Positions 9,435 to 63,718 of a DNA stretch of 64,000 nt are shown piece after piece; within the stretch, counting starts at the first letter, position 1, and each line of letters opens with the position of its first letter. The stretch spans positions 2,996-66,995 of the forward strand of contig JAGUYM010000011.1 in assembly GCA_020061305.1 (NCBI GenBank), in the 5' to 3' direction. The DNA comes from Candidatus Woesebacteria bacterium (GTDB lineage Bacteria; Patescibacteriota; Microgenomatia; UBA8517). The notes beneath the pieces are model-generated. The model was not told where the DNA came from. It saw nothing but the letters and a program-made list of their open reading frames with translations, and searched no databases. The position numbers and the translations under genes are program-made.

Positions 9435-10190
9435 TCATATTTTTTTGCACTCAGCCACAAAAGAGTATGATAAATTGCTCAGCTTTATTTTTTGGTCAAC
9501 GCGTGCCAACCAAATAATAAATTTGCTCTCTTTCTTAAAAAGAGCAAAATATAGAAAATCAATTGCCAATATAATTGGCAATGTTAATGAATATAACCAA
9601 TGTCGTGTTAATTTAAACTTATTTCCCAAAAGTTTTATTAGATCTTTTTTAGAATAATGAGTATGAGAATCCCTCCCCAATGTAATATCGCCAATCATTC
9701 CTTGTTTCTTTTTTAACACAAATTCTTTTCTATATTCTTTTTCACCATAAAAATATTTATATAAAATCCGATGTAAATTAGGGAACAAAAACTTAATATT
9801 TCCAGTGTCTAAAAATCCAAACAAACCTTTGTTCAAACCATATATATATAAAGTTCCATTCTTTTTTAAGACCCTATGGATCTCGGACAATGTTTCTCTC
9901 TCATCTAAAACATGTTCTAAAACCCCCATCATCGTCACACAATCAAAAAAGTTTGACTTATATGGAATTTTTTCTCCTATACCAACTAATGAATAGTTTG
10001 CTTTTTGCTGTTTGTTTTTTAGTTTTTTAATAACAAGTGCATCTGCGTCACACGCATAAACTATTCTATTCTTTGAACACAAATTCTCAGAAAAACTACC
10101 ATTTCCACACCCAAAATCCAATATTTTTTTAGCACTATTAGGAATAGCTTTCATCACAATTTCTTCGCATAAAAAATCTTTATTATTCAT
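9435..10190 (-). CDS. Class I SAM-dependent methyltransferase
   Basis: Motif I ILDFGCGNGSF, followed by LKKNGTLYIYG. Confidence 0.7.
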   Translation of the reverse strand: MNNKDFLCEEIVMKAIPNSAKKILDFGCGNGSFSENLCSKNRIVYACDADALVIKKLKNKQQKANYSLVGIGEKIPYKSNFFDCVTMMGVLEHVLDERETLSEIHRVLKKNGTLYIYGLNKGLFGFLDTGNIKFLFPNLHRILYKYFYGEKEYRKEFVLKKKQGMIGDITLGRDSHTHYSKKDLIKLLGNKFKLTRHWLYSLTLPIILAIDFLYFALFKKESKFIIWLARVDQKIKLSNLSYSFVAECKKI

Positions 10191-23343: not shown

Positions 23344-23843
23344 AAATCGTATACTACTACTGCATGAAGATATTATTTTTAAGTTTAATTATCTTTGTTT
23401 TTAGTATTTCTCAGATCTATGCAAAAACTCCAGAAGAGTATCATTTGACTTATCAAAAAACTCTCCCCAGCTCCCCTTCATACTCTTTTAAAAGATTCAA
23501 AGAAAAAGGATTGATGATGTTAAAAATTACTCATAAATCTAAATATAAATATTCAGAGGTGTTACTTGAAAAAAGACTTTCTGAGCTAGTATCGTTGGTT
23601 GATGTTAAAGATCCAAATCTGGTTACAGGTGCTTCCCAGCGTTTTTCATACCAAGCAGGTATACTTGCTGATCTAAATTCAAAATTAAAAATTAGCAACA
23701 AAGAAAATATTAAAAACAGATTTGAAGATTATAAAAAGATTCTTTCAGAACTTCGTGATAACTATCCAGCCAATTCAGCCTACTGGCTACTAATTCAACA
23801 AAATATTGATACTCTTAATATTCTTTTTGACAAAATGAAATAA
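23334..23843 (+). CDS. Small secreted protein of unknown function
   Basis: It has an N-terminal signal-peptide-like segment MKILFLSLIIFVFSISQIYA (the real start is probably this internal Met). The remainder is hydrophilic and helical. Confidence 0.4.
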   Translation: MIAQIVYYYCMKILFLSLIIFVFSISQIYAKTPEEYHLTYQKTLPSSPSYSFKRFKEKGLMMLKITHKSKYKYSEVLLEKRLSELVSLVDVKDPNLVTGASQRFSYQAGILADLNSKLKISNKENIKNRFEDYKKILSELRDNYPANSAYWLLIQQNIDTLNILFDKMK

Positions 23844-34415: not shown

Positions 34416-35465
34416 TCAGATCATTTTTTTGTATATCTTCAATGTTTCTTTGGCTGCTTTATCCCAACTATATTTTTTGACTTGCTCATATCCTCTTTTA
34501 ATACATTCATTTCTTTGTTTGTTGTCTGACATTAGTATTTTTAACTTTTCTACCAAATCATCAACACTATTAGTATCAAAATAAAGGCAGGCATCACCAC
34601 ACACTTCAACCAATGCCTGAGTTCTCGAACATATTACAGGGCAACCCAATTTCATGGCTTGAATGGGTGGCAAACCAAAACCTTCGTAAAACGAAGGTTG
34701 AATACAGATGTAAGCTAAATTATAAATTTTATTAAGCTCGTCATCAGTTACATATCCCGGTCTAATAACTTTGGAAAAATTTACTCCCTTTAAATGTTTT
34801 AATTCTGGGTGATTTAAGTCCAAATTATTAATATTTTTAGTATCTTCATCAATTGCAACAAGTGGAAAATTTATTTTATTGCAAGCCTCAATAAGTGTTT
34901 TTAAATTTTTATTGTAATTTAAACCATGATCAAATAATATAAATTTATCCGGTAAATTAAATTTCTTTTTGGTTTCCTCAATCCATTTTCCTTTTTCTAA
35001 TTTTTTAATAGCTGATTTTGGAGCAAGATAAACTACATCAACAATTTCAGGTTTAACACCTAAAAATCTACAAATGTCTTTTTTAGAAGTTTCAGAAATT
35101 GTAATAACCCTATCTACATATTTTTTGATCAAAAATTTATTAATATAAAATCTAATTTTTCCTTTAATACCTGACGGATAGTGTTCTGGATATATAAGTG
35201 GTATCAAATCATGAATTGTTAATATCCACTTCTGGCTAGCAGTTTTAAAAAATGGCAAATCAACAAAAAATGGTCTAAATTTAGTGAAATGCACTATATC
35301 TGCGTTTGATCGATCAACAACTATGACTTTTGACTTTTGACTTTTGACTTCAAGAGCTTTTACAAGCTCGCTCGTATTAACACCTATGCCACGCATTGAA
35401 TCTAACTCGCTATGTGCTCCAGATGAAAAATAAACTTTCATTGTTTTATTATACTGCAGAGCCAA
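34416..35465 (-). CDS. GT4 family glycosyltransferase
   Basis: The segment EGFGLPPIQAMKLGCPVICS has the E-x7-E-like signature. The CDS contains a (GACTTTT)n tandem repeat. Confidence 0.7.
   Translation of the reverse strand: MALQYNKTMKVYFSSGAHSELDSMRGIGVNTSELVKALEVKSQKSKVIVVDRSNADIVHFTKFRPFFVDLPFFKTASQKWILTIHDLIPLIYPEHYPSGIKGKIRFYINKFLIKKYVDRVITISETSKKDICRFLGVKPEIVDVVYLAPKSAIKKLEKGKWIEETKKKFNLPDKFILFDHGLNYNKNLKTLIEACNKINFPLVAIDEDTKNINNLDLNHPELKHLKGVNFSKVIRPGYVTDDELNKIYNLAYICIQPSFYEGFGLPPIQAMKLGCPVICSRTQALVEVCGDACLYFDTNSVDDLVEKLKILMSDNKQRNECIKRGYEQVKKYSWDKAAKETLKIYKKMI
35324..35349. repeat. Heptanucleotide tandem repeat (GACTTTT) x3.7 inside the GT4 CDS 34416..35465
   Basis: Read directly: gacttttgacttttgacttttgacttc. 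On the coding strand it encodes KSQKSKV. Confidence 0.9.
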
Positions 35466-39092: not shown

Positions 39093-39977
39093 TTATTTGG
39101 AATTATTAGTCAAATACTTAAAATAAGCAATTGGGAAGTGCCAAGATGAAAACAAACTCCACAAAAATCCATTTACTCCATCGAGAAAACCAAGGTGACG
39201 CACATACAATGAAAGAAAAGTGACTAGTGGCTTGTGAATTGTGAACAACAAAAACGAAAATAAATTTTTTGGAACATTTTTAACTTTCAGTTCTTCAGCA
39301 TGAAGATCAGTATATCTATTTAATCTCGAAAAATAACGCTTTAATGTTGGGGAATCAAAATGTAACAAATCTCCATTTAACCAGCCAACCCTGCCATCAA
39401 GAGTTATTTGTTCATGAACTGATTTTTGGGGAAACCTAGCGTATCCATTTTTAACAAGTCTAATAACTCCATCAGGATAAACACCTGCATGTACTAAAGG
39501 TTTTCCTAAAAACATGTTTCTTCTGGGAATAAAGTAACCCACAATTTCTCCTGTTGATTTACCAATTGGACCATCACGTTGTTCTATTAGTTTTTGGTGG
39601 CGAGCAAATAGTGGATTGTGATTTGTGACTGGTGATTGGTGAGATACAACAGAAACAATTTCTTTGGCAAGTTCGGGAGTTACGACTTCGTCTGCATCAA
39701 GTTGTAATATCCATTCACCTTTTGCTTTTTCAAGGGCTTTCTGTTTTGTTATATGAAAAATATCATGATGTGGTTCTAAATAAACTTTGGCTCCTAGTTT
39801 TTCTGCAATTTCTCTTGTTTTGTCAGTTGAATATTCATCAACAACAATCATTTCACCCGCAATGTCTTTTACGGATTCCAAACACCTTTCAATATTTTCT
39901 TCTTCATTGCGCGTCGCTAAGACGACAGATAACTTCAGTGATTGGTGGCTTGTGATTGGTGATTTGTAAATACTCAT
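39093..39977 (-). CDS. GT2 family glycosyltransferase (small WaaE/KdtX-like type)
   Basis: LSVVLATRNEEENIERCL...MIVVDEYSTDKT...ILQLDADEVVTPEL...IPRRN. It is a paralog of 60449..61165 and 61129..62046. It contains three TCAC-heptamer arrays, one at codons 4-13. Confidence 0.7.
   Translation of the reverse strand: MSIYKSPITSHQSLKLSVVLATRNEEENIERCLESVKDIAGEMIVVDEYSTDKTREIAEKLGAKVYLEPHHDIFHITKQKALEKAKGEWILQLDADEVVTPELAKEIVSVVSHQSPVTNHNPLFARHQKLIEQRDGPIGKSTGEIVGYFIPRRNMFLGKPLVHAGVYPDGVIRLVKNGYARFPQKSVHEQITLDGRVGWLNGDLLHFDSPTLKRYFSRLNRYTDLHAEELKVKNVPKNLFSFLLFTIHKPLVTFLSLYVRHLGFLDGVNGFLWSLFSSWHFPIAYFKYLTNNSK
39220..39246. repeat. TCACNNN heptamer array (copy D): gtgactagtggcttgtgaattgtgaac
   Basis: It lies inside the GT2 CDS 39093..39977, in the C-terminal part. 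Confidence 0.7.
39611..39643. repeat. TCACNNN heptamer array (copy C): gtggattgtgatttgtgactggtgattggtgag
   Basis: It lies inside the GT2 CDS 39093..39977 and encodes SHQSPVTNHNP in a loop between the DxD-E block and IPRRN. Confidence 0.75.
39938..39966. repeat. TCACNNN heptamer array (copy B, reverse orientation): gtgattggtggcttgtgattggtgatttg
   Basis: It lies within codons 4-13 of the GT2 gene 39093..39977 (peptide SPITSHQS) and immediately 3' of the four-helix-bundle gene. It shares an 18-mer gtggcttgtga(t/a)ttg(g)tga with copy D. Confidence 0.8.
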
Positions 39978-40342
39978 TTTTTACTTAAAATATTAATTAA
40001 TGCATTTATTGACATTGACAAATATTCATATTTTTGTCTTAACATCAAATACTTTTCATTACTAATATAACCTAAGTCTTTCGAAACTAACAGATGATAA
40101 ATTACTTCTCCTGAAGAACCACGAGATGTATATAAAAATTGAACCAATTCTTTGGTTGTATGACGATAAAAACCTTCTAGGATATTAGTAGGTATTGATA
40201 GAGCCGACCTTCGAATTTGTGAAATAAGTCCAAACAATTCTTCTTTTGGAAATTTTTTAGTTATTGTATAAATTTCCATAGCAAGTTTATGTGACCCTTG
40301 CCATATCTTTAAATCTTCAAATTTAGTTATTTGTTTTTTCAT
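39974..40342 (-). CDS. Four-helix-bundle protein of the Avd / 23S rRNA intervening-sequence protein family (TIGR02436-like)
   Basis: 122 aa. FEDLKIWQ...A..IY..TKKFPKEELFGLISQIRRSALSIPTNILEG matches the family consensus well. Confidence 0.75.
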   Translation of the reverse strand: MKKQITKFEDLKIWQGSHKLAMEIYTITKKFPKEELFGLISQIRRSALSIPTNILEGFYRHTTKELVQFLYTSRGSSGEVIYHLLVSKDLGYISNEKYLMLRQKYEYLSMSINALINILSKK

Positions 40343-40354
40343 TTGTTTTTGTTC

Positions 40355-40392
40355 TCACTAATCACAAGTCACTAATCACTATTGTTGTTCAC
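40355..40392. repeat. TCACNNN heptamer array (copy A): TCACTAA TCACAAG TCACTAA TCACTAT ... TTCACTG
   Basis: It lies in the 46-bp gap between the four-helix-bundle gene start and the end of the GT39-like gene. It is the reverse complement of the copy at 39938..39966, identical at 21 of 24 positions (three pyrimidine transitions). Confidence 0.8.
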
Positions 40393-41966
40393 TGCGCATG
40401 TCCTGTAACAATGTAGAATGCATCTGTTTTATTTGGGTATTTGATCTGTTTTACTACATCAAATTGCTGCGCGAATCTAAGCCCCGTATAATAACTTGGT
40501 GTTATGACATATAATATTCCCTCGCTAGGATAGCTGTCTATAATATTCCAGCTTCCAAATTGATATCGACCAAAAGACAAAATGGTGTTAAAACTTTTTG
40601 AATTTGATCTGTCATATTTGACAGTTTTAAGTAACTCAGGAAGTGCTACTTTTTGATAATATAAAAAGTATATATACGGCTGCTGTCTGATATTATCAAC
40701 ATACATTTTTTGAAAATTGTCATTATCTTTTGCATATTCAACAATTTCTTTCATTCCATATTGCCATTCAATAGCCTCTTTAACGGGGTAAACTTTCGAA
40801 TAATAATTTAAATAATATATTACCTCTTTACCTAAATATACTAAAATTAAAATTGCAACAAGTATTTGAACTATTTTATACTTAAATGTTTGGATTAATG
40901 CTGATGCTCCAAAAGCAGATAATAAAATGATGGGGCCTATCATAAATATACCTCTGATTGCACTTGGGTCGATTGATGACACTGAGCTTGGAATTGGTGA
41001 GAGAAACAACCACAATAAAATAACTGATAATGCTTGCCACTTTTTTCTTAATATAAGTGCAAGTAAACCAACCATCAGTAAAATTAAATCTATTTTATAA
41101 AATTGCCCCACAACCTTAACTGATGCTCTTGGTCCTTGATCTCCACTTACAAATAAATATTGATAATTAAAATGTTTTATATAATTAGAGGCAATAAGTT
41201 TTAATTTTCCACCTGCATTTTTAATTTGTTCGTCAGAAAATTTTGTCTGATTTATTCGTGCAAAACCTAAAATTCTAGTATCTTTTATAATTAATATTCC
41301 AAAAAATAATATGATTAGTACCGAAAATGTCAGCGCAACTCTTTTTTGCAATAGAGACTTAATATTTAAGATACAAACCAATATTACAACAATTGGGACA
41401 ACAACTTTGGCAGAGTGATATGAGAAAAAGGATAATCCAAAAGACAAAAATGATATTGGCAACAAATAATTTTTGTTTAGTAAACCAACATAGAATGTAG
41501 ATAACCCCGTAACCAAAAAAAACAATGCAAAGTTATTCTCCCAAAGTCCTCTGGAAAAATGAATATGATATGGAGAAACAGCCAAAAAAAGTGATGCAAG
41601 TAGTCCTGCCAAATCGCTTTTGAATAATTCACGGGCTAAGAAAAAAAATGCAAATACAGATAATGTTCCAATCACTGCACTGACCGATCGAATATTAAAA
41701 TCGGACAGTCCAAATATTTTTACTATTACAGCAGTTAAATAAATGTGAACAGGATGTTTGTCATCACCAAAAGAGGTAAAAGTAATTGGAAATTTATTTC
41801 CATATTCATCTGCTCCCCAATTTGCAATTGTATATGCATTATACCCTGCCGCCACTTCATCCCAATTTAATGAGGCTGGAATTTGGTCAAGTTTGTAAAA
41901 TCTTAAAAAACCTGCCAGTATTACAATCAAGAATAATGTAATATATATTAGTTTGTCTTTCCACAT
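40389..41966 (-). CDS. GT-C polytopic membrane glycosyltransferase, GT39/ArnT-like (tandem paralog 1 of 4)
   Basis: The N-terminal loop SLNWDEVAAGYNAYTIANWGADEYGNKFPITF is shared with the three downstream paralogs. It has about 11 TM helices. Confidence 0.6.
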   Translation of the reverse strand: MWKDKLIYITLFLIVILAGFLRFYKLDQIPASLNWDEVAAGYNAYTIANWGADEYGNKFPITFTSFGDDKHPVHIYLTAVIVKIFGLSDFNIRSVSAVIGTLSVFAFFFLARELFKSDLAGLLASLFLAVSPYHIHFSRGLWENNFALFFLVTGLSTFYVGLLNKNYLLPISFLSFGLSFFSYHSAKVVVPIVVILVCILNIKSLLQKRVALTFSVLIILFFGILIIKDTRILGFARINQTKFSDEQIKNAGGKLKLIASNYIKHFNYQYLFVSGDQGPRASVKVVGQFYKIDLILLMVGLLALILRKKWQALSVILLWLFLSPIPSSVSSIDPSAIRGIFMIGPIILLSAFGASALIQTFKYKIVQILVAILILVYLGKEVIYYLNYYSKVYPVKEAIEWQYGMKEIVEYAKDNDNFQKMYVDNIRQQPYIYFLYYQKVALPELLKTVKYDRSNSKSFNTILSFGRYQFGSWNIIDSYPSEGILYVITPSYYTGLRFAQQFDVVKQIKYPNKTDAFYIVTGHAQ

Positions 41967-43345
41967 ATTTTTTCAAAAGTATAATTACCAAACGATTTGA
42001 CAGTTGAGAAACCCCAGTCAGAAACAGGATTTAGTTGTCTTGTCTTGATAAACTCATTTGGATCTATTTTTTGGTAGAACAAGGCAAATATATAAGGTTG
42101 GGCAAATTTATCACTAACACATCCTTCTTTTTGTTTTTCAAATATTTCTTTGTATTCATATTGCCATGCACTTGAAGACAACTTGTTGTATTCAGTTCCA
42201 AATTTATAAAAATAATTTTCAAATGAAAGTGCATAAATAAGGATTATCCCTGTCAATATCCAAGCCCTACCTTTTTTGAAGAGAGTAGAAAAAAAGTAAA
42301 TTCCCATTGCAGAAACAACTGATAAAATTGGGCTCATTAAAATTGATCGAAGTGCATGTGGATTTTCGCGAGTTAAAGCAGCTGGAATTGGTGCCAACGT
42401 AATAAGAATTAAGATTGGCCAATATTTTGAATTTTTCAAAATATAAATTATTCCAATCACTAAAAACAAAACATCAACGTAATATAATTGCCCAATATTA
42501 GGTATCTGGCTTCTCGGATTTGTATCTCCCGTCTTAATTAAAAAATCGTATGAAAAGTTTTTAAAGTAATTATTTACAATATTTTTTGTATCACCAACTG
42601 TTTGGAATCTACCTAGTCCTGAATCCAGTTTATATAATTTATATATGGGAATAATGCTACCAATCAATAAAATTATTGAAATTGTAACCACAACAAATTG
42701 TTTTTTTGTTAAAAAATAAAATAAAATTGGCCCTAAAATAAACGGTGTTAATATCCTAAAACTATTATAACTGTAAATAGATAGAATAAATAAAATCGTC
42801 GAACCAACAATTAGCCATTTGTTTCTTTGACTATACAAAATTAAATATATTGCCCATATAAAAAATGCTAGACCTGCTACTGCCTCATGCCCTGTTCTTG
42901 AAAAAACATAAAACCATGGGGTTATTGAAAACAAGAATGAAGAAAAAAGAGATAATAATTTCTGGTTAGTCAATTTGAAAACTACGAAATACAAACCAAG
43001 AATTGATAACAATCCGTACAATACTGCGGGCAGACGGACAGCCAGCGTAGATAATCCAAACACAGACTCTGTAACAAGTACAGAGTATATATATACAGGC
43101 AACTTAAATTCGCCAAAAGCTCTAAAATGCAAAGGCAATGTTTCTCCCCATTCATCTTTACCTGTTGTTAGTACAGAGTAGGCATTATAACCAATTGAGG
43201 CTTCATCCCAATAAACTGATGATGGTATTGAATCAATTTTATAAAGTCTGGTTATTAAAAATAACAAACAGATTAATAACAAAAAGAAGTTGATTTTTAC
43301 AAAATTAACACTAATTTTCAACAATTTCAAAAGCTGGATCGCCAT
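41948..43345 (-). CDS. GT-C polytopic membrane glycosyltransferase, GT39/ArnT-like (tandem paralog 2 of 4)
   Basis: Carries the shared loop SVYWDEASIGYNAYSVLTTGKDEWGETLPLHF. Confidence 0.6.
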   Translation of the reverse strand: MAIQLLKLLKISVNFVKINFFLLLICLLFLITRLYKIDSIPSSVYWDEASIGYNAYSVLTTGKDEWGETLPLHFRAFGEFKLPVYIYSVLVTESVFGLSTLAVRLPAVLYGLLSILGLYFVVFKLTNQKLLSLFSSFLFSITPWFYVFSRTGHEAVAGLAFFIWAIYLILYSQRNKWLIVGSTILFILSIYSYNSFRILTPFILGPILFYFLTKKQFVVVTISIILLIGSIIPIYKLYKLDSGLGRFQTVGDTKNIVNNYFKNFSYDFLIKTGDTNPRSQIPNIGQLYYVDVLFLVIGIIYILKNSKYWPILILITLAPIPAALTRENPHALRSILMSPILSVVSAMGIYFFSTLFKKGRAWILTGIILIYALSFENYFYKFGTEYNKLSSSAWQYEYKEIFEKQKEGCVSDKFAQPYIFALFYQKIDPNEFIKTRQLNPVSDWGFSTVKSFGNYTFEKICGKTN

Positions 43346-44972
43346 TAAGGAAATTTATCCTTTCTAATACTTCTTTATATTCTGGGAAGTCTCCCTTTTT
43401 ACCAATAAATAATATTTTTTTGTTTGGATTTGCTTTTACTATATCATCATATCTTGTTCCTTCATCTCTCAAATCTGGGAAATAATACTTATCAAATCTT
43501 AATACTCTAACCCAGTCAAAAGTTTCAAATCTCTCTAAATTATTTAGAGATTGAAATTTTGTAGGATCATATTGCAAATTAAAAAGTGTAAAAATATGTG
43601 GTTCACCATAATGTCTAGTGAAAACAACCAAATCATATTTGTCTTGATTGTTTTTAATGTACTCAACTGCTTGTTTGTTACCATACTGCCAATCTCGAGA
43701 ATATTTAATTGGATAATTAGTAAAATAATTAATTAAATAAATATAAAAATTAATTATGAATAACACTAAAACAAATAGTATTACCTTGATCTTAGATCTT
43801 GGATCTTTGATCATAGACAGAACTTCAAACAAACCAATTGCGGTAAATATTTGATAAACAGGAACTGCAATTAAAGTACGAAGTGCATTTGGGATGCTGT
43901 CGTTTGTCATGGAAACGGGAATAAATGCAATTAATAGCCATGGAATAAGAATTTTTAAAGAACCATGTTTTCTTTTAATTAAAAAATTTAAACCGTACAA
44001 CAAAAATGGCAACTGAATCCAATATAATTCCCCAATCCCTTGTACATGATGTTGTCTGTGCCCTGCACCATTAATAAATAAAAAGTTAGGAGTAAAATGA
44101 GCAACATAATTTTTACTAAAGTAAAAGGTATTATATGTGTATCTATTGTGAATTAATCTTGTCAAGAGTGGTGGCAATTTAGATAAGTTTCTTCTTTCTT
44201 CAATTCTAGGTATTAACCCCTTGTCATCTGTAATACTTACTAATTTATATCTAGCTACAGCACCGCCAGAAAAAACAAAGGGCACAATCGGCAAGACTAA
44301 AACAACAAAGGCTAAAAAGCTAAATGCTAAATATCTAAAATTCTTTAGCAAAAACTTAATATTAAGAAGATAAACAACAAACAAAAAGAGAGGTGTAAAC
44401 ACCCTTGCGGTATTGTATGTGTAAACCGATATTACAAATGGTATCATCGATACAATAAGCAGCTTGGGCTTATTGTTAAACCCTCTAATCAGGAACCAAG
44501 ACCCCATTACAAACCAAAAAAGTGAAAATGAAGATTCAAAAGAAGCTCGGGTAAGTTGAATGTGCCAAGGAGAAACAGCAAGCATAAAGGCAGTGATTAG
44601 TGAATAGTGATTAGTGAATAGTGACTTTGCAAACAATTCTCTGGTTAAAAAATAAAGTAGTAAAACTGTTAGTGTCCCATAAACAACCGGCGTTATCCTA
44701 ACACCAAATTCATTTAATCCAAATATGGCAATTGCAGGAATTGAAGCATAGATTTGAGTAGGTAATTTATACTCACCAAATGATTTAAAATGAACCGGCA
44801 TAAACTCGCCCCATTCGTCTTTTCCAGTTTTCATTATTGAATATGCATTGTAACCAATAGAAGTCTCATCCCAATTTAAAGATGGTGGAATTGTCGTTAC
44901 TTTAAAAATTCTTAAAGCAAATGCAAGGACTAATATTAATATCAACCAATAATTATAATTATTTTTTAACAT
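43311..44972 (-). CDS. GT-C polytopic membrane glycosyltransferase, GT39/ArnT-like (tandem paralog 3 of 4)
   Basis: Carries the shared loop SLNWDETSIGYNAYSIMKTGKDEWGEFMPVHF. It contains a TCAC-heptamer array. Confidence 0.6.
   Translation of the reverse strand: MLKNNYNYWLILILVLAFALRIFKVTTIPPSLNWDETSIGYNAYSIMKTGKDEWGEFMPVHFKSFGEYKLPTQIYASIPAIAIFGLNEFGVRITPVVYGTLTVLLLYFLTRELFAKSLFTNHYSLITAFMLAVSPWHIQLTRASFESSFSLFWFVMGSWFLIRGFNNKPKLLIVSMIPFVISVYTYNTARVFTPLFLFVVYLLNIKFLLKNFRYLAFSFLAFVVLVLPIVPFVFSGGAVARYKLVSITDDKGLIPRIEERRNLSKLPPLLTRLIHNRYTYNTFYFSKNYVAHFTPNFLFINGAGHRQHHVQGIGELYWIQLPFLLYGLNFLIKRKHGSLKILIPWLLIAFIPVSMTNDSIPNALRTLIAVPVYQIFTAIGLFEVLSMIKDPRSKIKVILFVLVLFIINFYIYLINYFTNYPIKYSRDWQYGNKQAVEYIKNNQDKYDLVVFTRHYGEPHIFTLFNLQYDPTKFQSLNNLERFETFDWVRVLRFDKYYFPDLRDEGTRYDDIVKANPNKKILFIGKKGDFPEYKEVLERINFLNGDPAFEIVEN
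44593..44625. repeat. TCACNNN heptamer array (copy E): perfect (gtgattagtgaata) x2 plus gtgac
   Basis: It lies inside the GT39-like CDS 43311..44972 and encodes SLFTNHYSLIT. Confidence 0.8.
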
Positions 44973-46422
44973 CTGTTATTGTAATATTGCCATATACTTT
45001 AGGAAAAGTACCATATTGTGATTGTACTAATTGAGGATCGATTTTTGCATATACTGGATAGGCATATTCAATATTGTCAATATTAGTTGAGAGAACAACC
45101 TTTTTATCTTTTGGTTTACTGATTGCTTCAATTGATTTTTTCTTCGCCTCCTCCGACCAAAAAGATCCAAACTTATTAGGAGCAAAATAATAAATCGTTA
45201 TCAAAACATGGATCAACTGAACAATTATTAAACTAACAAATATTAACTTTGCTTTTTTTGGAATACTAGATAGAGCATATGCAGATATTAAAATAAAAGG
45301 CGGTAACATTAAATTATTTCTAAGCGCATGGGTTTGACCAAGAAACATAGTTGCAAGTGGGGTAATTAGAATCCAACAAATGATTAATGTTAAATACTTT
45401 TTGTTATTATTTGCCAAAAAGTATAAACCAACAAATAATAGCCCCATTTCAGCCAAATATAACATGCCCCATTCAGCAGGATTTGCTCTAGGATTTCTGT
45501 CGCCTCGCAAAAATAAAAACTGGGGGGACAAATTTTCAATATAATTTTCGAAAAGTATTCTTGAATATAATAGCGGCCGATTATAAATGTATGGCTTGAT
45601 TGCTTCGGGTAGTGTCGAAAGTGTGCGTTTCTCATTAACTTTTTGTATCACTTCTTCCCTCAGCTGTGCATCTGATAAAACATTTAATCTTAAAAATCTT
45701 TCCTCCGATGTCCCTTTAAAACTTTCGTTCAATGAAAATAAAGCAAACAGAGACAATATTAAAAGTGACAATTTAAATTGATTGTCTTTAAACATTTCTT
45801 TAATTCCAGAAGTTATCGCCAAAATTGGAAATAGTAGCGGTAGTGTTAACTTAAATGTTGGATATGTAAAAATTGTCAAACCAAAAAAAACAGCCATTGG
45901 TATATATTTCTTGTACAAAAACGAAACTACGCCCAAGAGTGATAAAAATAATGCAAGATGAGCTTCAAATCCTGCCCGAGATAAATATATATCCCACAGT
46001 GAAATTGAAGTTAAAAAACTTGCCCATAAACCGACATTATTATCAAAGAGCTTTTTTCCGATAAAATACATAATCAATACTATTCCCATTCCAGATAGGA
46101 ATGATAATCCCCTAACTCCCCATTCAGTTGGTCCAAATAGCGCAACAAACGGTATGCTACCGTAAACATACCCCGCGGGCCTGCCTGCACCCATTTTAAA
46201 AGTTATAGGCAGTCTTTCACCTGTTTGATCCATTCCGGTTTTCAATAATGAATATGAATCGTACACAATAGTTAATTCATCCCCATACATTGGAAGTGAA
46301 GTTATTTTATATACTCTTAAGAAGAATCCTAATATTAATATTCCAATTAGTATATAATTTGAGTATGGAAGTTTTGCTGATGGGATCAATTTTTGGATTT
46401 TCTCTCGCAACATTAATTTCAT
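44959..46422 (-). CDS. GT-C polytopic membrane glycosyltransferase, GT39/ArnT-like (tandem paralog 4 of 4, more divergent)
   Basis: Carries a divergent version of the loop: YGDELTIVYDSYSLLKTGMDQTGERLPITF. Confidence 0.55.
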   Translation of the reverse strand: MKLMLREKIQKLIPSAKLPYSNYILIGILILGFFLRVYKITSLPMYGDELTIVYDSYSLLKTGMDQTGERLPITFKMGAGRPAGYVYGSIPFVALFGPTEWGVRGLSFLSGMGIVLIMYFIGKKLFDNNVGLWASFLTSISLWDIYLSRAGFEAHLALFLSLLGVVSFLYKKYIPMAVFFGLTIFTYPTFKLTLPLLFPILAITSGIKEMFKDNQFKLSLLILSLFALFSLNESFKGTSEERFLRLNVLSDAQLREEVIQKVNEKRTLSTLPEAIKPYIYNRPLLYSRILFENYIENLSPQFLFLRGDRNPRANPAEWGMLYLAEMGLLFVGLYFLANNNKKYLTLIICWILITPLATMFLGQTHALRNNLMLPPFILISAYALSSIPKKAKLIFVSLIIVQLIHVLITIYYFAPNKFGSFWSEEAKKKSIEAISKPKDKKVVLSTNIDNIEYAYPVYAKIDPQLVQSQYGTFPKVYGNITITDVKK

Positions 46423-48152
46423 ATATCTTAATTGTACTAAATATTCCTTATTTAATCATTCCTGTTTTACTTACATCTTTAATCTTAAATCTTAAATCAA
46501 TAATCAAAGTAATAAAAACAGTTAAAATCAAGCTCGACATTCGTCTATTGGTGATATTTATAGTATTCACTCTCGGCATTGTTGGTCAATTATTAGTCGT
46601 CTCTCCTAGCGGTACTTACAAATCAGGGGATCTTTTATTCTGGAGTGCACATGGCCACGATGGATCATGGCATATAGCTCTAATGGAAGAAATTAAAAAG
46701 GGATATCCGTTCCAAAACCCAATCTTTGCGGGTGAAAAACTGATAAACTACCATTTTTTCTCTGATATTTTGCCTGCGGTAATTAGTAAATATACACCGC
46801 TATCTAACGAAAATTTATACTTTAGAATTTTTCCATTTTTTTATTCTTTATTTTTGGGTACATCAGTTTACTTTCTAACTAAAAAAATAACTAGTAATTT
46901 TAGTGCCAGTATTTGGGCAGTTATTTTTACTTATTTTACAGGAAGCTTTGGTTATTTAATAGGCAAAGGTGAGAGTGTCTTTTGGGCTACACAAATTCAA
47001 AGCTCAAGTGGCAACCCACCTCAAATAATTTCAAACTTTTTATTTTTAACTGCAATATATTTTGTTTTAAAAAAACGTTTTTTTATTTCACTTATTCTTA
47101 TTGGTACCATCTCAGCATTTAAAATATATGCAGGAGTAATACTACTTGGAACTCTTTCAATTATCGGTATCTGGAACTTAATATTCAAAAAAGATATGTG
47201 GCTATTTTTACTTTCTTTATTTTCAGGAATAATTGCGCTAGCACTTTATCTACCCAATTCTTCCAATTCTTCTTCTTTTCTAATATTTGAGCCTTGGTGG
47301 TATATCAGAACAATGATTGTAGAGCCTTCAAGATTAAATTTATTAGATTGGGAACTTCGCCGTCAAACTTATATTTATGAGCATAATTGGAAAAGAGTTA
47401 TTTGGCTTGAGGGAATGGGTTTTTTAATATTTTTCTTTGGAAATTTAGGAATGAGATTTTTGGGGTTATGGGAATTTGTCAAAACTAACGCTATTTTTAA
47501 AATATCAATTTTATTATCCCTAGTCTTTCCACTTCTCTTTCTACAAAAAGGGGTTGCCAGTAATACGGCTCAATTTTTGCAATACTTTTTGTTACTTTTT
47601 GGAATTTTAGCTGGAATTGCAGTTTCCAAAATTCCAAAAACTTTATCTTCATTCCTCTTTCCTCTTATCTTTCTTTTGATGATCCCAACACAAATTGATT
47701 TACTTCGAAATTTTTACCAAAGACCAGCATTTGCAAAAATTAGTTCTCAAGAGCTAGAAGCTTTGAATTTTATTAAAAACAACACGGATGAAAACGCAGT
47801 AATTCTAACACCCCCATATAATCAACATTTAGATCAAAAACAAGTTACACCAAATATTTGGGATTGGTTTGATACATCGTATGTTTCAGCATTTTCATCA
47901 AGAAGAACTTATTTTGATGACTATGAACAAGTTGACATAATGGGCTATGATTATAAACCTAGATTAAAAATAAAGGAAACAATTTTTAATAGTAGAGAAA
48001 TTGAAGAAGTTAAAGGGGCCCTAAAATCAACAAATGCAGATATTTTATATTACCCCAAAGAGACAGCTCCTAAAGTTAATCTAAATGAACATGAACTTGG
48101 GCTAACAAAAATATACGAAAACTCTAATCTAGAAGTTTGGAAAGTAAATTGA
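46290..48152 (+). CDS. Polytopic membrane protein, paralog of 62015..63718 (GHDG-WH...NP-FAGE family); probable GT-C-like
   Basis: Shares the motif WSAHGHDGSWHIALMEE...QNPIFAGEKLINYH with 62015..63718. The annotated start overlaps the divergent gene 44959..46422, so the real start is probably downstream: ATG at 46365 or 46380, or a TTG/GTG near 46545. Confidence 0.45.
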   Translation: MEVKLFYILLRRILILIFQLVYNLSMEVLLMGSIFGFSLATLISYILIVLNIPYLIIPVLLTSLILNLKSIIKVIKTVKIKLDIRLLVIFIVFTLGIVGQLLVVSPSGTYKSGDLLFWSAHGHDGSWHIALMEEIKKGYPFQNPIFAGEKLINYHFFSDILPAVISKYTPLSNENLYFRIFPFFYSLFLGTSVYFLTKKITSNFSASIWAVIFTYFTGSFGYLIGKGESVFWATQIQSSSGNPPQIISNFLFLTAIYFVLKKRFFISLILIGTISAFKIYAGVILLGTLSIIGIWNLIFKKDMWLFLLSLFSGIIALALYLPNSSNSSSFLIFEPWWYIRTMIVEPSRLNLLDWELRRQTYIYEHNWKRVIWLEGMGFLIFFFGNLGMRFLGLWEFVKTNAIFKISILLSLVFPLLFLQKGVASNTAQFLQYFLLLFGILAGIAVSKIPKTLSSFLFPLIFLLMIPTQIDLLRNFYQRPAFAKISSQELEALNFIKNNTDENAVILTPPYNQHLDQKQVTPNIWDWFDTSYVSAFSSRRTYFDDYEQVDIMGYDYKPRLKIKETIFNSREIEEVKGALKSTNADILYYPKETAPKVNLNEHELGLTKIYENSNLEVWKVN

Positions 48153-60448: not shown

Positions 60449-61165
60449 TTACTTTTCTTTCAATTGCATTTCCCACAACTTAGAATATGAGATGAGCTTA
60501 CTATAAATTTGGTAAATCCCATATATTATTCCCATTTTTCCATCAAGGAATGCTTTTTCTGCTATAAATCTTTTCCAAAATTCCCTAAAACCTGCACTAA
60601 AAAATCTGAAACCATTCATTGGGGGATGATTTGCATCAAACATGAGTTTAGCCTCAATTTCAGACCATTTATTTGTTTTATCTATCATCTCAGAAAGTGT
60701 CATGTTTTTGTGGTGAATCATTGGATTTTTTAAATGTCCAATCTCGCCTTTATAGATTGGTTCTTCATGGACATCACCCACCCATTTTTTTAAACTAATT
60801 CTTTTAAAAAATCTCTTTTGATAATCTGGATATTGGCCTGAATATTTAAATTCTTTGTTTAAAATGAAATTTCTACGCGGTATTGCGTACGCGCTTACTT
60901 TTGGCTGTTGGCTGTTGACTGCTGACCAAAGCTCTGCGTGAAGCGCAGGCGTAATTTCTTCGTCTGAATCTAAATATAAAATCCAGTCGCACTTGGCTTT
61001 TTTTAATCCTTCATTTCTCCAATCACTAAAGCTTCCCTTTTCTCCAACAACCAAAACCAATTCATCACACCAAGAAACTGACTTTTTGGCAACTTCTAGA
61101 AGTTTTTCATTATAATATCCGCCATAAATTATAACGGCAGATATTTTCTTTTTATTTTCAACCAT
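60449..61165 (-). CDS. GT2 family glycosyltransferase (small WaaE/KdtX-like type)
   Basis: ILYLDSDEEITPAL...IPRRN. It is a paralog of 39093..39977 and 61129..62046. It contains a GC-rich repeat-derived insert. Confidence 0.6.
   Translation of the reverse strand: MVENKKKISAVIIYGGYYNEKLLEVAKKSVSWCDELVLVVGEKGSFSDWRNEGLKKAKCDWILYLDSDEEITPALHAELWSAVNSQQPKVSAYAIPRRNFILNKEFKYSGQYPDYQKRFFKRISLKKWVGDVHEEPIYKGEIGHLKNPMIHHKNMTLSEMIDKTNKWSEIEAKLMFDANHPPMNGFRFFSAGFREFWKRFIAEKAFLDGKMGIIYGIYQIYSKLISYSKLWEMQLKEK
60901..60927. repeat. Short GC-rich direct repeat ttGGCTGTTGGCTGTTGACTGCTGACC inside the GT2 CDS 60449..61165
   Basis: GGCTGTT occurs twice, followed by degenerate copies. It lies within an atypically GC-rich patch of about 80 bp (60870-60960) that includes a small hairpin CTGCG-TGAAG-CGCAG. 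Confidence 0.7.
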
Positions 61166-62046: not shown

Positions 62047-63718
62047 ATATTATACTTTTTTTATTCTCAAAAATCTTCTTTAGATCTAAATCACTGGGGC
62101 CCAATTTTAATAACTCACCCACAAGTGGTGAGTTTTCCTTAACTAGGTATAAATATTTAATTTTATTCTTTTTTAAAAAATCCTTACCTGCTACAGGATC
62201 TAAATTAGAGATAAACCAAGCAACTTGATTTCGCCTTTTTCTCCAATCGTAACCCATGATATTTAAATTAACCTCGTCTTCAATAAATACCTTTTTACCA
62301 GAAATTGCCGATACATATGCTGTCGAATCATAGTAATAAAGTGATCTGGGCGGGTTAGCATTTTCAACTTTCGCCTTATCTGAATCAAATAAATAGGTCA
62401 AAACAATTCCACCTGGTTGCTCTTCCAAAAAAGTTAAAGCTACTATTTCTTCTGCAGAAACAATAGCCTGCGGCATTTTTGGTAAATAATGTTGAAGTGT
62501 CGACCAAACCGAGAAAAGCGAAAAAAATATGAATATATAATATTTAATATTTAACTTAATTCTGCTAAATGAAATTCCTGCAAAAATTGCAAAGAAAAAT
62601 AAATAATAATAAAAAAATTGAATTGTATTCCATGGCGTACCTTTTTGCACAAAAAGTAGAGGAATTGCCATTGCAGACATCATAATGGATATAATAAATA
62701 CAAATACGAGTTCTATCTTAACTTTAATCAAATATAAGAAACCAACAATTCTTAGACCCATGTTGCCTACAACAAATATTATAAAGGCTATTAAATAAGC
62801 CAAAATTCCTTTAAACCAAATATGTCCCATTTTATAAGTAGTCATAGCTGAATAAAACCTTTCCCAACCCAATCGATCTGAATAGCTCATCATTGTTTCC
62901 AAAAACCAAAACGGTTGCCAAACAAAAGTGGACAGACCATCATTTTTGGTTATTGCAAATAAAACTAAGTTAAGAATAAGTGAACCTAAAAATACACGCA
63001 GGTAGTATGTAGTATGTAGTATGTAGTATGCGTATATACAAGTAATAGCTAAACTACCTAAAACTAAGATTGCGGCGTAAGCCTTAATTTGTATTAATAA
63101 ACCAAAAAATAAAATACTAAAAAATAGATTCTTTTTTTGTAAAGCAATTAATCCAGATAAAATAAAAATTAAAGATAAGGCAAATGGAGGATTTATAAGT
63201 GTAGAAACTGCTTGCTGTGACCAAAACATTGATTCACCTGTAATTACTCCATCTCTTAACAAAGTAACTAAAAAACCAAAACTTCCACTAAAATAAACAA
63301 ACATGGTTGCCCACAAAGCCTCAGTTTTGGAACCACGCCAACTCCAAACGAACCAATAAACCAATAAACCAATTCCTAATGCAAACAACGGTGGGAGAAT
63401 CTGGAAATATAAATTACTAACAGAAATACCAGTTAATTTATGTAGTAACGCTAAAAATAAATCGAAGCCAATGTGATAATTTTTGATTGTCTCACCAGCA
63501 AAAACTGGATTTTCAAAATTTCCTGAAGCCAAACTTCTAGCAAGTGCTAAGTGCCATATACCATCATGGCCGTTTGCTCCCCAAAATCCAAAGCCAAAAT
63601 AATATAACAGCCCACTCCTCACCATTGTCAAAGACCAAATTATTGTACCCAATGATATTACAAGGATGTGTTTCCAGTATCTAACAATTTTGTTCATTGG
63701 CACTATTTTTCTCCCCAA
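62015..63718 (-). CDS. Polytopic membrane protein, paralog of 46290..48152 (GHDG-WH...NP-FAGE family)
   Basis: Carries the shared motif GANGHDGIWHLALARSL...ENPVFAGETIKNYH. It contains a (GTAGTAT)4 tandem repeat in the CDS. Confidence 0.45.
   Translation of the reverse strand: MGRKIVPMNKIVRYWKHILVISLGTIIWSLTMVRSGLLYYFGFGFWGANGHDGIWHLALARSLASGNFENPVFAGETIKNYHIGFDLFLALLHKLTGISVSNLYFQILPPLFALGIGLLVYWFVWSWRGSKTEALWATMFVYFSGSFGFLVTLLRDGVITGESMFWSQQAVSTLINPPFALSLIFILSGLIALQKKNLFFSILFFGLLIQIKAYAAILVLGSLAITCIYAYYILHTTYYLRVFLGSLILNLVLFAITKNDGLSTFVWQPFWFLETMMSYSDRLGWERFYSAMTTYKMGHIWFKGILAYLIAFIIFVVGNMGLRIVGFLYLIKVKIELVFVFIISIMMSAMAIPLLFVQKGTPWNTIQFFYYYLFFFAIFAGISFSRIKLNIKYYIFIFFSLFSVWSTLQHYLPKMPQAIVSAEEIVALTFLEEQPGGIVLTYLFDSDKAKVENANPPRSLYYYDSTAYVSAISGKKVFIEDEVNLNIMGYDWRKRRNQVAWFISNLDPVAGKDFLKKNKIKYLYLVKENSPLVGELLKLGPSDLDLKKIFENKKSIIYEYGQDFGSD
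63002..63029. repeat. Heptanucleotide tandem repeat (GTAGTAT) x4 inside the membrane-protein CDS 62015..63718
   Basis: Read directly: gtagtatgtagtatgtagtatgtagtat. It encodes ...ILHTTYY... on the minus strand. Confidence 0.9.

Follow-up and report, generated by a model that had tools for sequence, protein, structure and literature searches.

In a 64-kb stretch of a Candidatus Woesebacteria genome (contig JAGUYM010000011.1; the whole stretch is hereafter the window), two short arrays of tandem TCACnnn heptamers face each other in inverted orientation around a small gene. We suggest that they are probably the arms of a small selfish gene cassette of the intervening-sequence (IVS) type, named after the IVSs of 23S rRNA genes, and that three further arrays within neighboring glycosyltransferase genes are solo copies derived from such arms. 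An earlier reading of the sequence alone had pointed out all five arrays, and we found them exactly where it placed them, at 39220 (A), 39611 (B), 39938 (C), 40355 (D) and 44593 (E). Its gene context is also right: A, B and C are inside a GT2 open reading frame (ORF; 39093-39977), E is inside a PMT_2/GT39-like ORF (43311-44972) and D is inside a 46-bp spacer (40343-40388). That spacer does not separate the GT2 and GT39-like genes, since it adjoins the upstream end of an ORF that had passed unnoticed. The peptides quoted for the coding arrays (SPITSHQS, SHQSPVTNHNP and FTNHYSLIT) are correct, and the 18-mer gtggcttgtga[a/t]ttg[g]tga, attributed to B and D, is in fact common to the first and third arrays, A (39228-39245) and C (39945-39962).

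The arrays are 25 to 33 nt long and Tandem Repeats Finder calls four of the five with a period of 7. E alone repeats perfectly; the units of the other four are non-identical. D has TCAC on the + strand and the other four have GTGA there. The pattern TCACN3TCACN3TCAC gives 7 overlapping matches in the window, within three of the arrays, against 0.00 in 100 shuffles, which is far above the expectation from base composition. A looser scan of the same 64 kb, which accepts three or more of four YCAC cores in 7-nt phase, hits A to E and nowhere else, against 0.03 expected, and all five are contained in 5.4 kb.

The ORF located between C and D, and between the GT39-like and GT2 genes, encodes a homologue of the four-helix-bundle proteins known as 23S rRNA intervening-sequence proteins (hereafter IVP). 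The protein matches PF05635 (E = 1.3e-36, 125 bits, cut-off 33.8) and TIGR02436, "four helix bundle protein" (E = 1.7e-34, 118 bits, cut-off 24). Its AlphaFold model has four helices with a pLDDT of 96, and the fold is matched by 2gsc and 2rld ("S23 ribosomal protein family", each with five chains in the deposited structure), by 4dwl (Avd, from the diversity-generating retroelement, DGR, of a Bordetella phage) and by 8ube (a DGR ribonucleoprotein). The gene is under purifying selection, with dN/dS of 0.05 to 0.23 in the pairs where dS is estimable (0.08 at a dS of 0.29 between the window and L004; compared loci are cited by such numbers). With a PF05635 gene between the inverted arrays C and D, a repeat that had been described without a mechanism becomes the putative arms of an IVS-type cassette.

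The arms themselves form a 26-nt inverted repeat (39937-39962 and 40355-40380), 88% complementary, with 392 nt between them. Past the stop codon of the upstream GT39-like gene comes the 5' arm, whose end is 12 nt short of the IVP start codon. For the - strand transcript, both the minimum-free-energy and the centroid predictions enclose the whole ORF in a terminal stem formed by the two arms, and the fold reaches -99.8 kcal/mol against -77.1 ± 5.3 for shuffled sequences (z = -4.3). The IVP stop codon overlaps the GT2 start codon (ATGA), and the 3' arm is translated as a 13-residue N-terminal extension of GT2, MSIYKSPITSHQS. The position where cassette-free orthologues have their ATG reads CTG in the window, so GT2 can only start inside the cassette, reading through the 3' arm. 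The cassette supplies the GT2 start codon, and GT2 is translationally coupled to it. Promoter and terminator scans around the cassette were indistinguishable from shuffles, and the IVP protein had no match among the PADLOC defence models.

Coordinates of the cassette, its host genes and the solo arrays in the window.
Feature	Coordinates	Strand	Description
IVP ORF	39974..40342	-	122 aa (369 nt); four-helix-bundle, "23S rRNA intervening-sequence protein"/S23p family, Avd homologue
5' arm (array D)	40355..40381	-	four GTGAnnn units on the gene-sense strand
3' arm (array C)	39937..39967	-	four to five nnnTCAC units
GT2 glycosyltransferase gene	39093..39977	-	hosts arrays A and B and arm C
GT39-like (PMT_2) gene	43311..44972	-	hosts array E and a GATCTTn heptamer array at 43783-43818
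Solo array A	39220..39245	-	four TCAC/CCAC units; GT2 C-terminal hydrophobic region; encodes FTIHKPLVT
Solo array B	39611..39642	-	five TCAC/CCAC units; linker after the GT2 catalytic domain; encodes SHQSPVTNHNP
Solo array E	44592..44624	-	perfect 14-mer × 2.4 (TCACTAT TCACTAA ...); loop of a GT39-like membrane glycosyltransferase; encodes SLFTNHYSLIT

The same GT39-GT2 junction is occupied in some relatives and empty in others. An IVP gene with GTGAnnn/nnnTCAC arms is found there in L004, L005, L009, L051, L076, L083 and L095. In L006, L044 and about 40 other loci there is neither cassette nor array, only a short spacer, and GT2 starts with MKLSVV. L008 has lost the ORF and the 5' arm and kept the AAAATGA junction and the 3' arm. 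All 14 orthologous loci scored as having an IVP gene upstream carry a heptamer array, with a TCAC-type or other unit, at the N-terminus of GT2; the array is missing from most loci devoid of that gene, those whose protein begins MKLSVV. L109 also has a cassette at this junction, with CGAGTTA-type arms and an IVP 39% identical to that of the window and 70% identical to that of an unrelated metagenome-assembled genome (L021); therefore two cassette lineages have occupied one site. We saw no direct duplication between filled and empty junctions, nor a recognisable target-site duplication. Across orthologues of 63-89% protein identity, the arrays stay in frame and hold their position.

Degraded cassettes also occur at this junction (L055 4069-4524; L064, L065, L067 and L079), with the ORF interrupted or cut to 82 aa and both arms kept, which suggests that arms can outlive the ORF. 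A second strain (L003, JGI 3300007354) shares 1.66 kb with the window at 99.9% identity (72-1734, corresponding to 40459-38797), comprising the cassette, GT2 and the start of an aldo-keto reductase gene. Downstream its sequence is wholly divergent, the reductase being cut short and a DUF3800 gene coming next, and upstream just 71 nt of contig extend beyond the match. This suggests that the segment was recently recombined or transferred. Close relatives have variable inserts just downstream of GT2, among them L004 (1702-3980 and 5932-6866), carrying a PIF1-type helicase, an NTP_transf_2/HEPN pair, AbiEii and DUF6922, and an IS200-type Y1 transposase gene occupies the corresponding place in L008 (7669-8349).

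Outside this junction, a scan of a genome collection with the IVP protein returned 34 loci from phyla of the candidate phyla radiation (CPR), Bacteroidota, Verrucomicrobiota, Omnitrophota, WOR-3 and ANME-1/Methanophagales archaea. Flanks were usable in 31 loci, 28 of them from the scan, the others being L004, L005 and the window. Among these 62 flanks, the best period is 7 in 40 and 8 in 10. A period-7 score of at least 15/21 is reached by 55% of flanks and by 2.9% of control positions in the same loci, an enrichment of about 19-fold, and a complementarity score of at least 12 between the two flanks is reached by 15 of the 31 loci against 0 of 105 controls. The units differ by genome (TAATGAT/ATCATTA, GTTCAAA/TTTGAAC, ATTTGAA/TTCAAAT, GATGTTG/CAACATC and GAGGTGT/…CTCAAAC), and the 5' arm is 0 to 12 nt from the start codon in most loci. 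Arm type follows protein clade: GTGAnnn arms go with the clade of the window's IVP (53-94% identity), and TAATGRY arms, in at least 3 genomic contexts, with a second clade (L012, L013, L015, L017 and L019). A search of plasmids gave 35 records, mostly from Nostoc, Calothrix and other cyanobacteria, plus Riemerella. We read six loci from cultured organisms (two Nostoc, Riemerella, Geminocystis, Picosynechococcus and Azospirillum). Four of these, from Nostoc punctiforme, Riemerella, Geminocystis and Picosynechococcus, have inverted heptamer arms; in Nostoc PCC 7120 each flank is a heptamer array too, but the units of the two do not complement each other. The Azospirillum lipoferum copy (L128) is a genuine 23S rRNA IVS (Rfam LSU_rRNA_bacteria, 912 bits) with inverted arms GACAGAG/GACGGAT. 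What the loci show directly is how the cassette is built, that one and the same site may have or lack it, and that it recurs at rRNA and non-rRNA sites.

Some of these copies stand in operon spacers. On a plasmid of Picosynechococcus PCC 7003 (L127) the cassette lies in a cmr operon, between cas10/cmr2 and cmr3. In Flavobacteria (L028/L029) two IVP paralogues occupy successive spacers of one operon, each with its own unit, and the flanking ORFs look like sufB, sufC and sufD by their N-terminal sequence; in Riemerella (L125) the cassette follows a gene annotated as an iron-sulfur cluster assembly accessory gene. Several long arrays with differing heptamer or octamer units are seen at a few loci (L011 1390-1890; L030 1177-2254; L035 1936-2084; L024 145-1045), the longest being 149 nt of CCTTCAGA/CCTTTAGA. 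In L011 the arrays flanking the ORF have the same orientation and an inverted one is found further upstream. Such loci may be nested or tandem cassette remnants.

The closest known relatives are the large 23S rRNA IVSs with an S23p ORF, as in Leptospira, Coxiella burnetii and the Azospirillum copy above, which have the same protein family, terminal inverted repeats enclosing the ORF and tandem heptamers adjacent to the start codon. In Coxiella, three or four GACAGAT heptamers precede the S23p ORF, and a 28-bp terminal stem is cut by RNase III (PMC4990558). The window element, however, is located between PMT_2 and GT2 genes and not in helix 25 or 45 of 23S rRNA; Rfam recognises no family in the window, hence no rRNA. 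It also differs in that the ORF stop overlaps the start of the next gene and in that the 3' arm is translated. Its ORF is under purifying selection, whereas that of Coxiella is described as decaying (PMC4990558). It is organised like a large 23S IVS but lacks the location in rRNA that defines one. The heptamers of the Coxiella IVS were already known; a general association of PF05635 genes with inverted heptamer arms was not found in the literature that we searched, the coverage of which is incomplete.

Other known systems share fewer traits. The Avd protein of DGRs has a homologous four-helix-bundle fold (4dwl and 8ube, TM 0.75-0.89), and the homology between PF05635 and Avd was noted before (PMC10053308). 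The window, however, has no template repeat or variable repeat and, in the nearly complete set of its ORFs of at least 100 aa that was checked, no reverse transcriptase, and the IVP scores 21.5 bits against the NCBIfam Avd equivalog model, under its cut-off of 80; we therefore reject a DGR. An adenine-specific mutation pattern was not seen either, though no search aimed at it was made. The short tandemly repeated repetitive (STRR) sequences of cyanobacteria and the TAACTGA repeats likewise have 7-nt units in short arrays of 2 to 6 copies, often just upstream of start codons, and the phyla that carry them coincide with those rich in PF05635. Both kinds, known from Beggiatoaceae, Cyanobacteria and Bacteroidetes, are described as mostly intergenic, with neither a mechanism nor an associated gene (PMC4679880), whereas here a specific gene family is bracketed and 99 of the 108 arrays that we counted in clade DNA (see below) are in ORFs. 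Short dispersed repeats with hairpin potential are also offered by repetitive extragenic palindromic (REP) sequences, their hairpin-forming doublets (REPINs) and miniature inverted-repeat transposable elements (MITEs), and a small ORF with a structured recombination site by integron cassettes. In nearly all window ORFs of at least 100 aa, which were checked, there is no REP-associated tyrosine transposase (RAYT), other transposase or integrase, and the tandem-heptamer arms vary by cassette lineage. Rickettsia palindromic elements are selfish palindromic DNAs of ~100-150 bp inserted in-frame in protein-coding genes. As here, they are repeat DNA at permissive sites of unrelated proteins and encode extra peptide, but the arrays in our case are 25-50 nt of tandem heptamers, often representing one arm and linked to a cassette.

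We next consider the solo arrays. The Pfam match of GT2 ends at residue 111, directly before array B. In orthologues this site contains TCACnnn arrays, their inverted GTGAnnn form (L006, L047 and L073), other heptamer families (CATCAAT, GGTTAGA and ACTCGTA) or GC-rich mini-hairpins (CTCCTCCGA…TCGGAGGTG), and more distant orthologues have a linker without an array, likewise of 18 residues. Site A carries TCAC, ATACTAC or TTCATTA arrays, or none, and in the window array A and arm C have TCACAAGCCAC in common. Over 26 nt, array E and arm D are 92% complementary, E matching the reverse complement of D at 24 of 26 positions, and site E is 4 aa longer in the window than in most GT39-like orthologues. 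The YCAC cores are kept at 7-nt spacing in GT2 orthologues with variable spacers, also at synonymous positions. The arrays in GT2 resemble the arms of their own cassette, being of the AATCAC type in the window, GTTCAC in L083 and ACTCGTA in L109, where an exact 13-mer, CACTCGTAACTCG, is common to the GT2 linker array and the 3' arm. This match to the own cassette is limited to the TCAC-family arrays (E, A and B), the L083 linker and the L109 linker.

Of the arrays within host genes, 16 have TCAC on the sense strand and 2 have GTGA there. A GTGA array brings TGA in frame every third unit, and the bias arises because the host ORF must stay open; the L006 array has GTCA precisely where TGA would fall in frame. 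Among 99 coding arrays of the clade, the antisense strand has no open frame in 46, and the sense strand is open in all three frames in 31. Solo arrays are filtered by reading frame and survive in the stop-free orientation. At the B site, a GC-rich mini-hairpin replaces the heptamer array in L045, L051, L053, L081, L091, L108 and L119. One example (CTCCTCCGAcggtggcc…ggaCTCCTCGGAGGTG) encodes SSDGG.GLLGGD in an otherwise AT-rich GT2 gene, and it resembles an ORF-less IVS within a protein-coding gene.

These comparisons also bear on how the arrays had been characterised from sequence alone. A dispersed family at the DNA level, tolerated in-frame and distinct from a protein motif, is what we observe, and at sites E and C there are orthologues that lack both array and peptide. 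The label "REP/MITE-like" fits loosely, since arrays of 25-33 nt made of tandem heptamers are dispersed repeats without a palindromic unit, and "slippage-prone module" is plausible for E, with its perfect 14-mer × 2.4, and does not extend to the others, made of non-identical units. Gene conversion among paralogs does not suit arrays whose positions in GT2 and GT39-like genes, themselves unrelated, are not homologous. Of the three candidate mechanisms, footprints of a small mobile element came closest, although the PF05635 gene bracketed by the inverted arrays C and D was missed.

Heptamer arrays are not restricted to the TCAC family. In 659 kb of dereplicated clade DNA we counted 108 period-7 arrays against 1 in shuffles, with periods 4-6 and 8-12 at background, and 99 of the 108 are inside ORFs of at least 120 aa. 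They split into many unit families. The window alone has 12 against 1 expected. Beyond A to E, further arrays are at 35316-35355, 43783-43818, 46468-46509, 60894-60929 and 62995-63035, and also 9997-10027 and 23671-23699, with units such as AAGTCAA × 4 (perfect), AAGATCn, TCTTAAA, CAGCCAA and CATACTA × 4 (perfect). All are within ORFs of glycosyltransferases or of unknown membrane proteins. In relatives the ATACTAC family turns up again at site A of GT2; L005 has it as well.

Several of these results weigh against the cassette as the source of the solo arrays. Only 11 of the 108 clade arrays adjoin an IVP gene and 97 do not, and the units of solo arrays are on average no closer to local arms (shared 6-mers 0.17) than to foreign ones (0.15), which gives no support to the idea that solo arrays in general co-vary with the cassette nearby. 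Heptamer arrays may therefore arise independently of the cassette. TCAC/GTGA arrays in the GT2 body are more frequent with an IVP gene (6 of 9 distinct loci) than without one (7 of 48), but the Fisher test (p = 0.003) is not corrected for phylogeny. Some array-bearing alleles at the GT2 linker and at site A equal array-free ones in length, so that "insertion" is not always the right word, and an overwriting of this kind has no known mechanism. Among nearly all window ORFs of at least 100 aa that were checked, there is no transposase, integrase, RAYT or reverse transcriptase. Finally, mismatches between arms in sense RNA comprise 24 G·U, 41 A·C and 67 others. Without an excess of G·U, selection for a stem in sense RNA is not demonstrated, which counts against a reading based on RNA alone. 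The link between solo arrays and cassette is shown for the TCAC family here and for a few relatives, and not for heptamer arrays in general; cassettes cognate to the remaining families may exist in other parts of the genome, or those families may have an independent origin.

The same counts argue for a lineage-wide mutational process that generates heptamers, as in cyanobacterial STRRs, with cassettes acquiring arrays or landing beside them and A, B and E unrelated to the cassette. The period-specific excess, the many unit families, the distance of most arrays from IVP genes and the lack of similarity to local arms all fit it, and heptamer direct repeats without a known mechanism exist in Beggiatoaceae, Cyanobacteria and Bacteroidetes (PMC4679880). 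We nevertheless consider it unlikely. IVP flanks are strongly enriched in period-7 arrays and the arms are inverted, whereas landing beside a pre-existing array predicts direct repeats; arm units track protein clade across contexts and phyla; the TCAC family of the window is restricted to the 5.4 kb around the cassette; and the linker array of L109 matches its own, very different, cassette arms. Better placed, though still somewhat doubtful as the explanation, is that the arrays are periodic DNA or RNA binding sites for the four-helix-bundle protein or another factor, selected for regulation, for instance translational control of the cassette ORF and host genes. The conservation of YCAC cores at 7-nt spacing with variable spacers, including synonymous GT2 positions, the 5' arms next to start codons over the ribosome-binding region and the co-variation of arm unit with protein clade would agree with this. 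So would the five chains in crystals of the solved relatives, the contacts of Avd with RNA in the DGR ribonucleoprotein and the binding of one CspB protein per heptamer, as cited in a passage of PMC4679880. The idea sits poorly with solo arrays at arbitrary internal positions of unrelated genes and with several unrelated unit families coexisting in one locus. Binding sites are compatible with an IVS-type cassette and do not exclude it.

That the hosts are glycosyltransferases in a 64-kb glycosylation cluster brings to mind phase variation, in which slippage-prone simple repeats would switch surface glycosyltransferases by ±7 nt frameshifts. The period is not a multiple of 3, and three arrays (E, 35324 and 63002) consist of perfectly repeated units. 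We find it very improbable, since A, B, C and D have non-identical units and are poor slippage substrates, the arrays stay in-frame and in place across orthologues, and inverted arms around an ORF in many phyla are left unexplained. The same-strain assemblies L001 and L002 match the window at 100% identity, and L003 spans only A to D, so they are uninformative on copy number. As for chance, or selection at the protein level for linkers rich in H, S, T, P and N, the peptides do fall in loops or linkers, but this explanation is hardly credible and we take it as refuted. The shuffles and the expected count of 0.03 arrays are against chance, as is the clade-wide period-7 excess. Selection for linkers leaves unexplained a 7-nt periodicity that reads the unit in all three frames, a single site (B) holding both orientations and unrelated unit families that encode unrelated peptides, and an array that is intergenic.

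We thus favor an IVS-type cassette with D and C as its arms and A, B and E as solo derivatives. How it spreads and what its protein does we infer as follows. The arms would pair in the transcript, or in DNA as a cruciform, enclosing the ORF and covering the ribosome-binding region; a 5' arm ending 0-12 nt from the start codon could occlude that region. By analogy with rRNA IVSs, where the stem is an RNase III substrate, the arms may be processed. The Avd-like protein, probably a pentamer like its solved relatives, would recognise the periodic arms. A, B and E could be arm sequence written into nearby permissive sites (a domain linker and membrane-protein loops) by short-patch copying or conversion, or alternatively remnants of hairpin insertions that lost one arm, and they would persist only where orientation and register leave the host ORF open. 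Two further ideas were abandoned: that an array of ~5 units matches a pentamer, because the detection threshold biases array length, and that the unit CACAGTT resembles the V(D)J heptamer, a coincidence since units differ between lineages.

The cassette is embedded in Microgenomates (CPR) DNA of ~30% G+C, in which the GT2 homologues bear Patescibacteria, Microgenomates and Woesebacteria names. The whole window (1-64000) is one glycosylation supercluster, with many GT2 and GT4 genes, a Polysacc_synt flippase, ~10 methyltransferases and at least 7 membrane proteins of the PMT_2/GT39-like or PTPS_related kind, of which four form a tandem run at 40389-46422.

A wider generalisation, which we regard as rather unlikely to hold in full, is that PF05635 genes with inverted heptamer arms constitute a widespread unrecognised class of mobile or gene-converting elements in bacteria and archaea. 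Their Avd-like protein would recognise 7-nt-periodic nucleic acid, and their arms would be copied to new sites, becoming the source of cyanobacterial STRRs, Beggiatoa TAACTGA repeats and in-gene arrays of CPR bacteria, with the rRNA IVS as one landing site among several. The pairing of protein family and arms leads to predictions: the protein should bind its cognate arms, RNase III should process them, and array families should map onto paralogues.

The window and its relatives link two puzzles that are decades old, the role of the ORF in 23S IVSs and the origin of tandem heptamers in cyanobacteria and other phyla. From CPR bacteria to ANME archaea, inverted heptamers bracket one and the same protein family, whether it lies in rRNA, on a plasmid or in an operon spacer (suf, cmr and glycosylation clusters). 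For annotation, the N-terminal extensions and the odd inserts rich in H, S, T, P and N seen here are better taken as repeat DNA than as conserved protein features. Arm-like arrays can be written into genes or survive in them, which varies the loops and linkers of enzymes for surface glycosylation in CPR bacteria.

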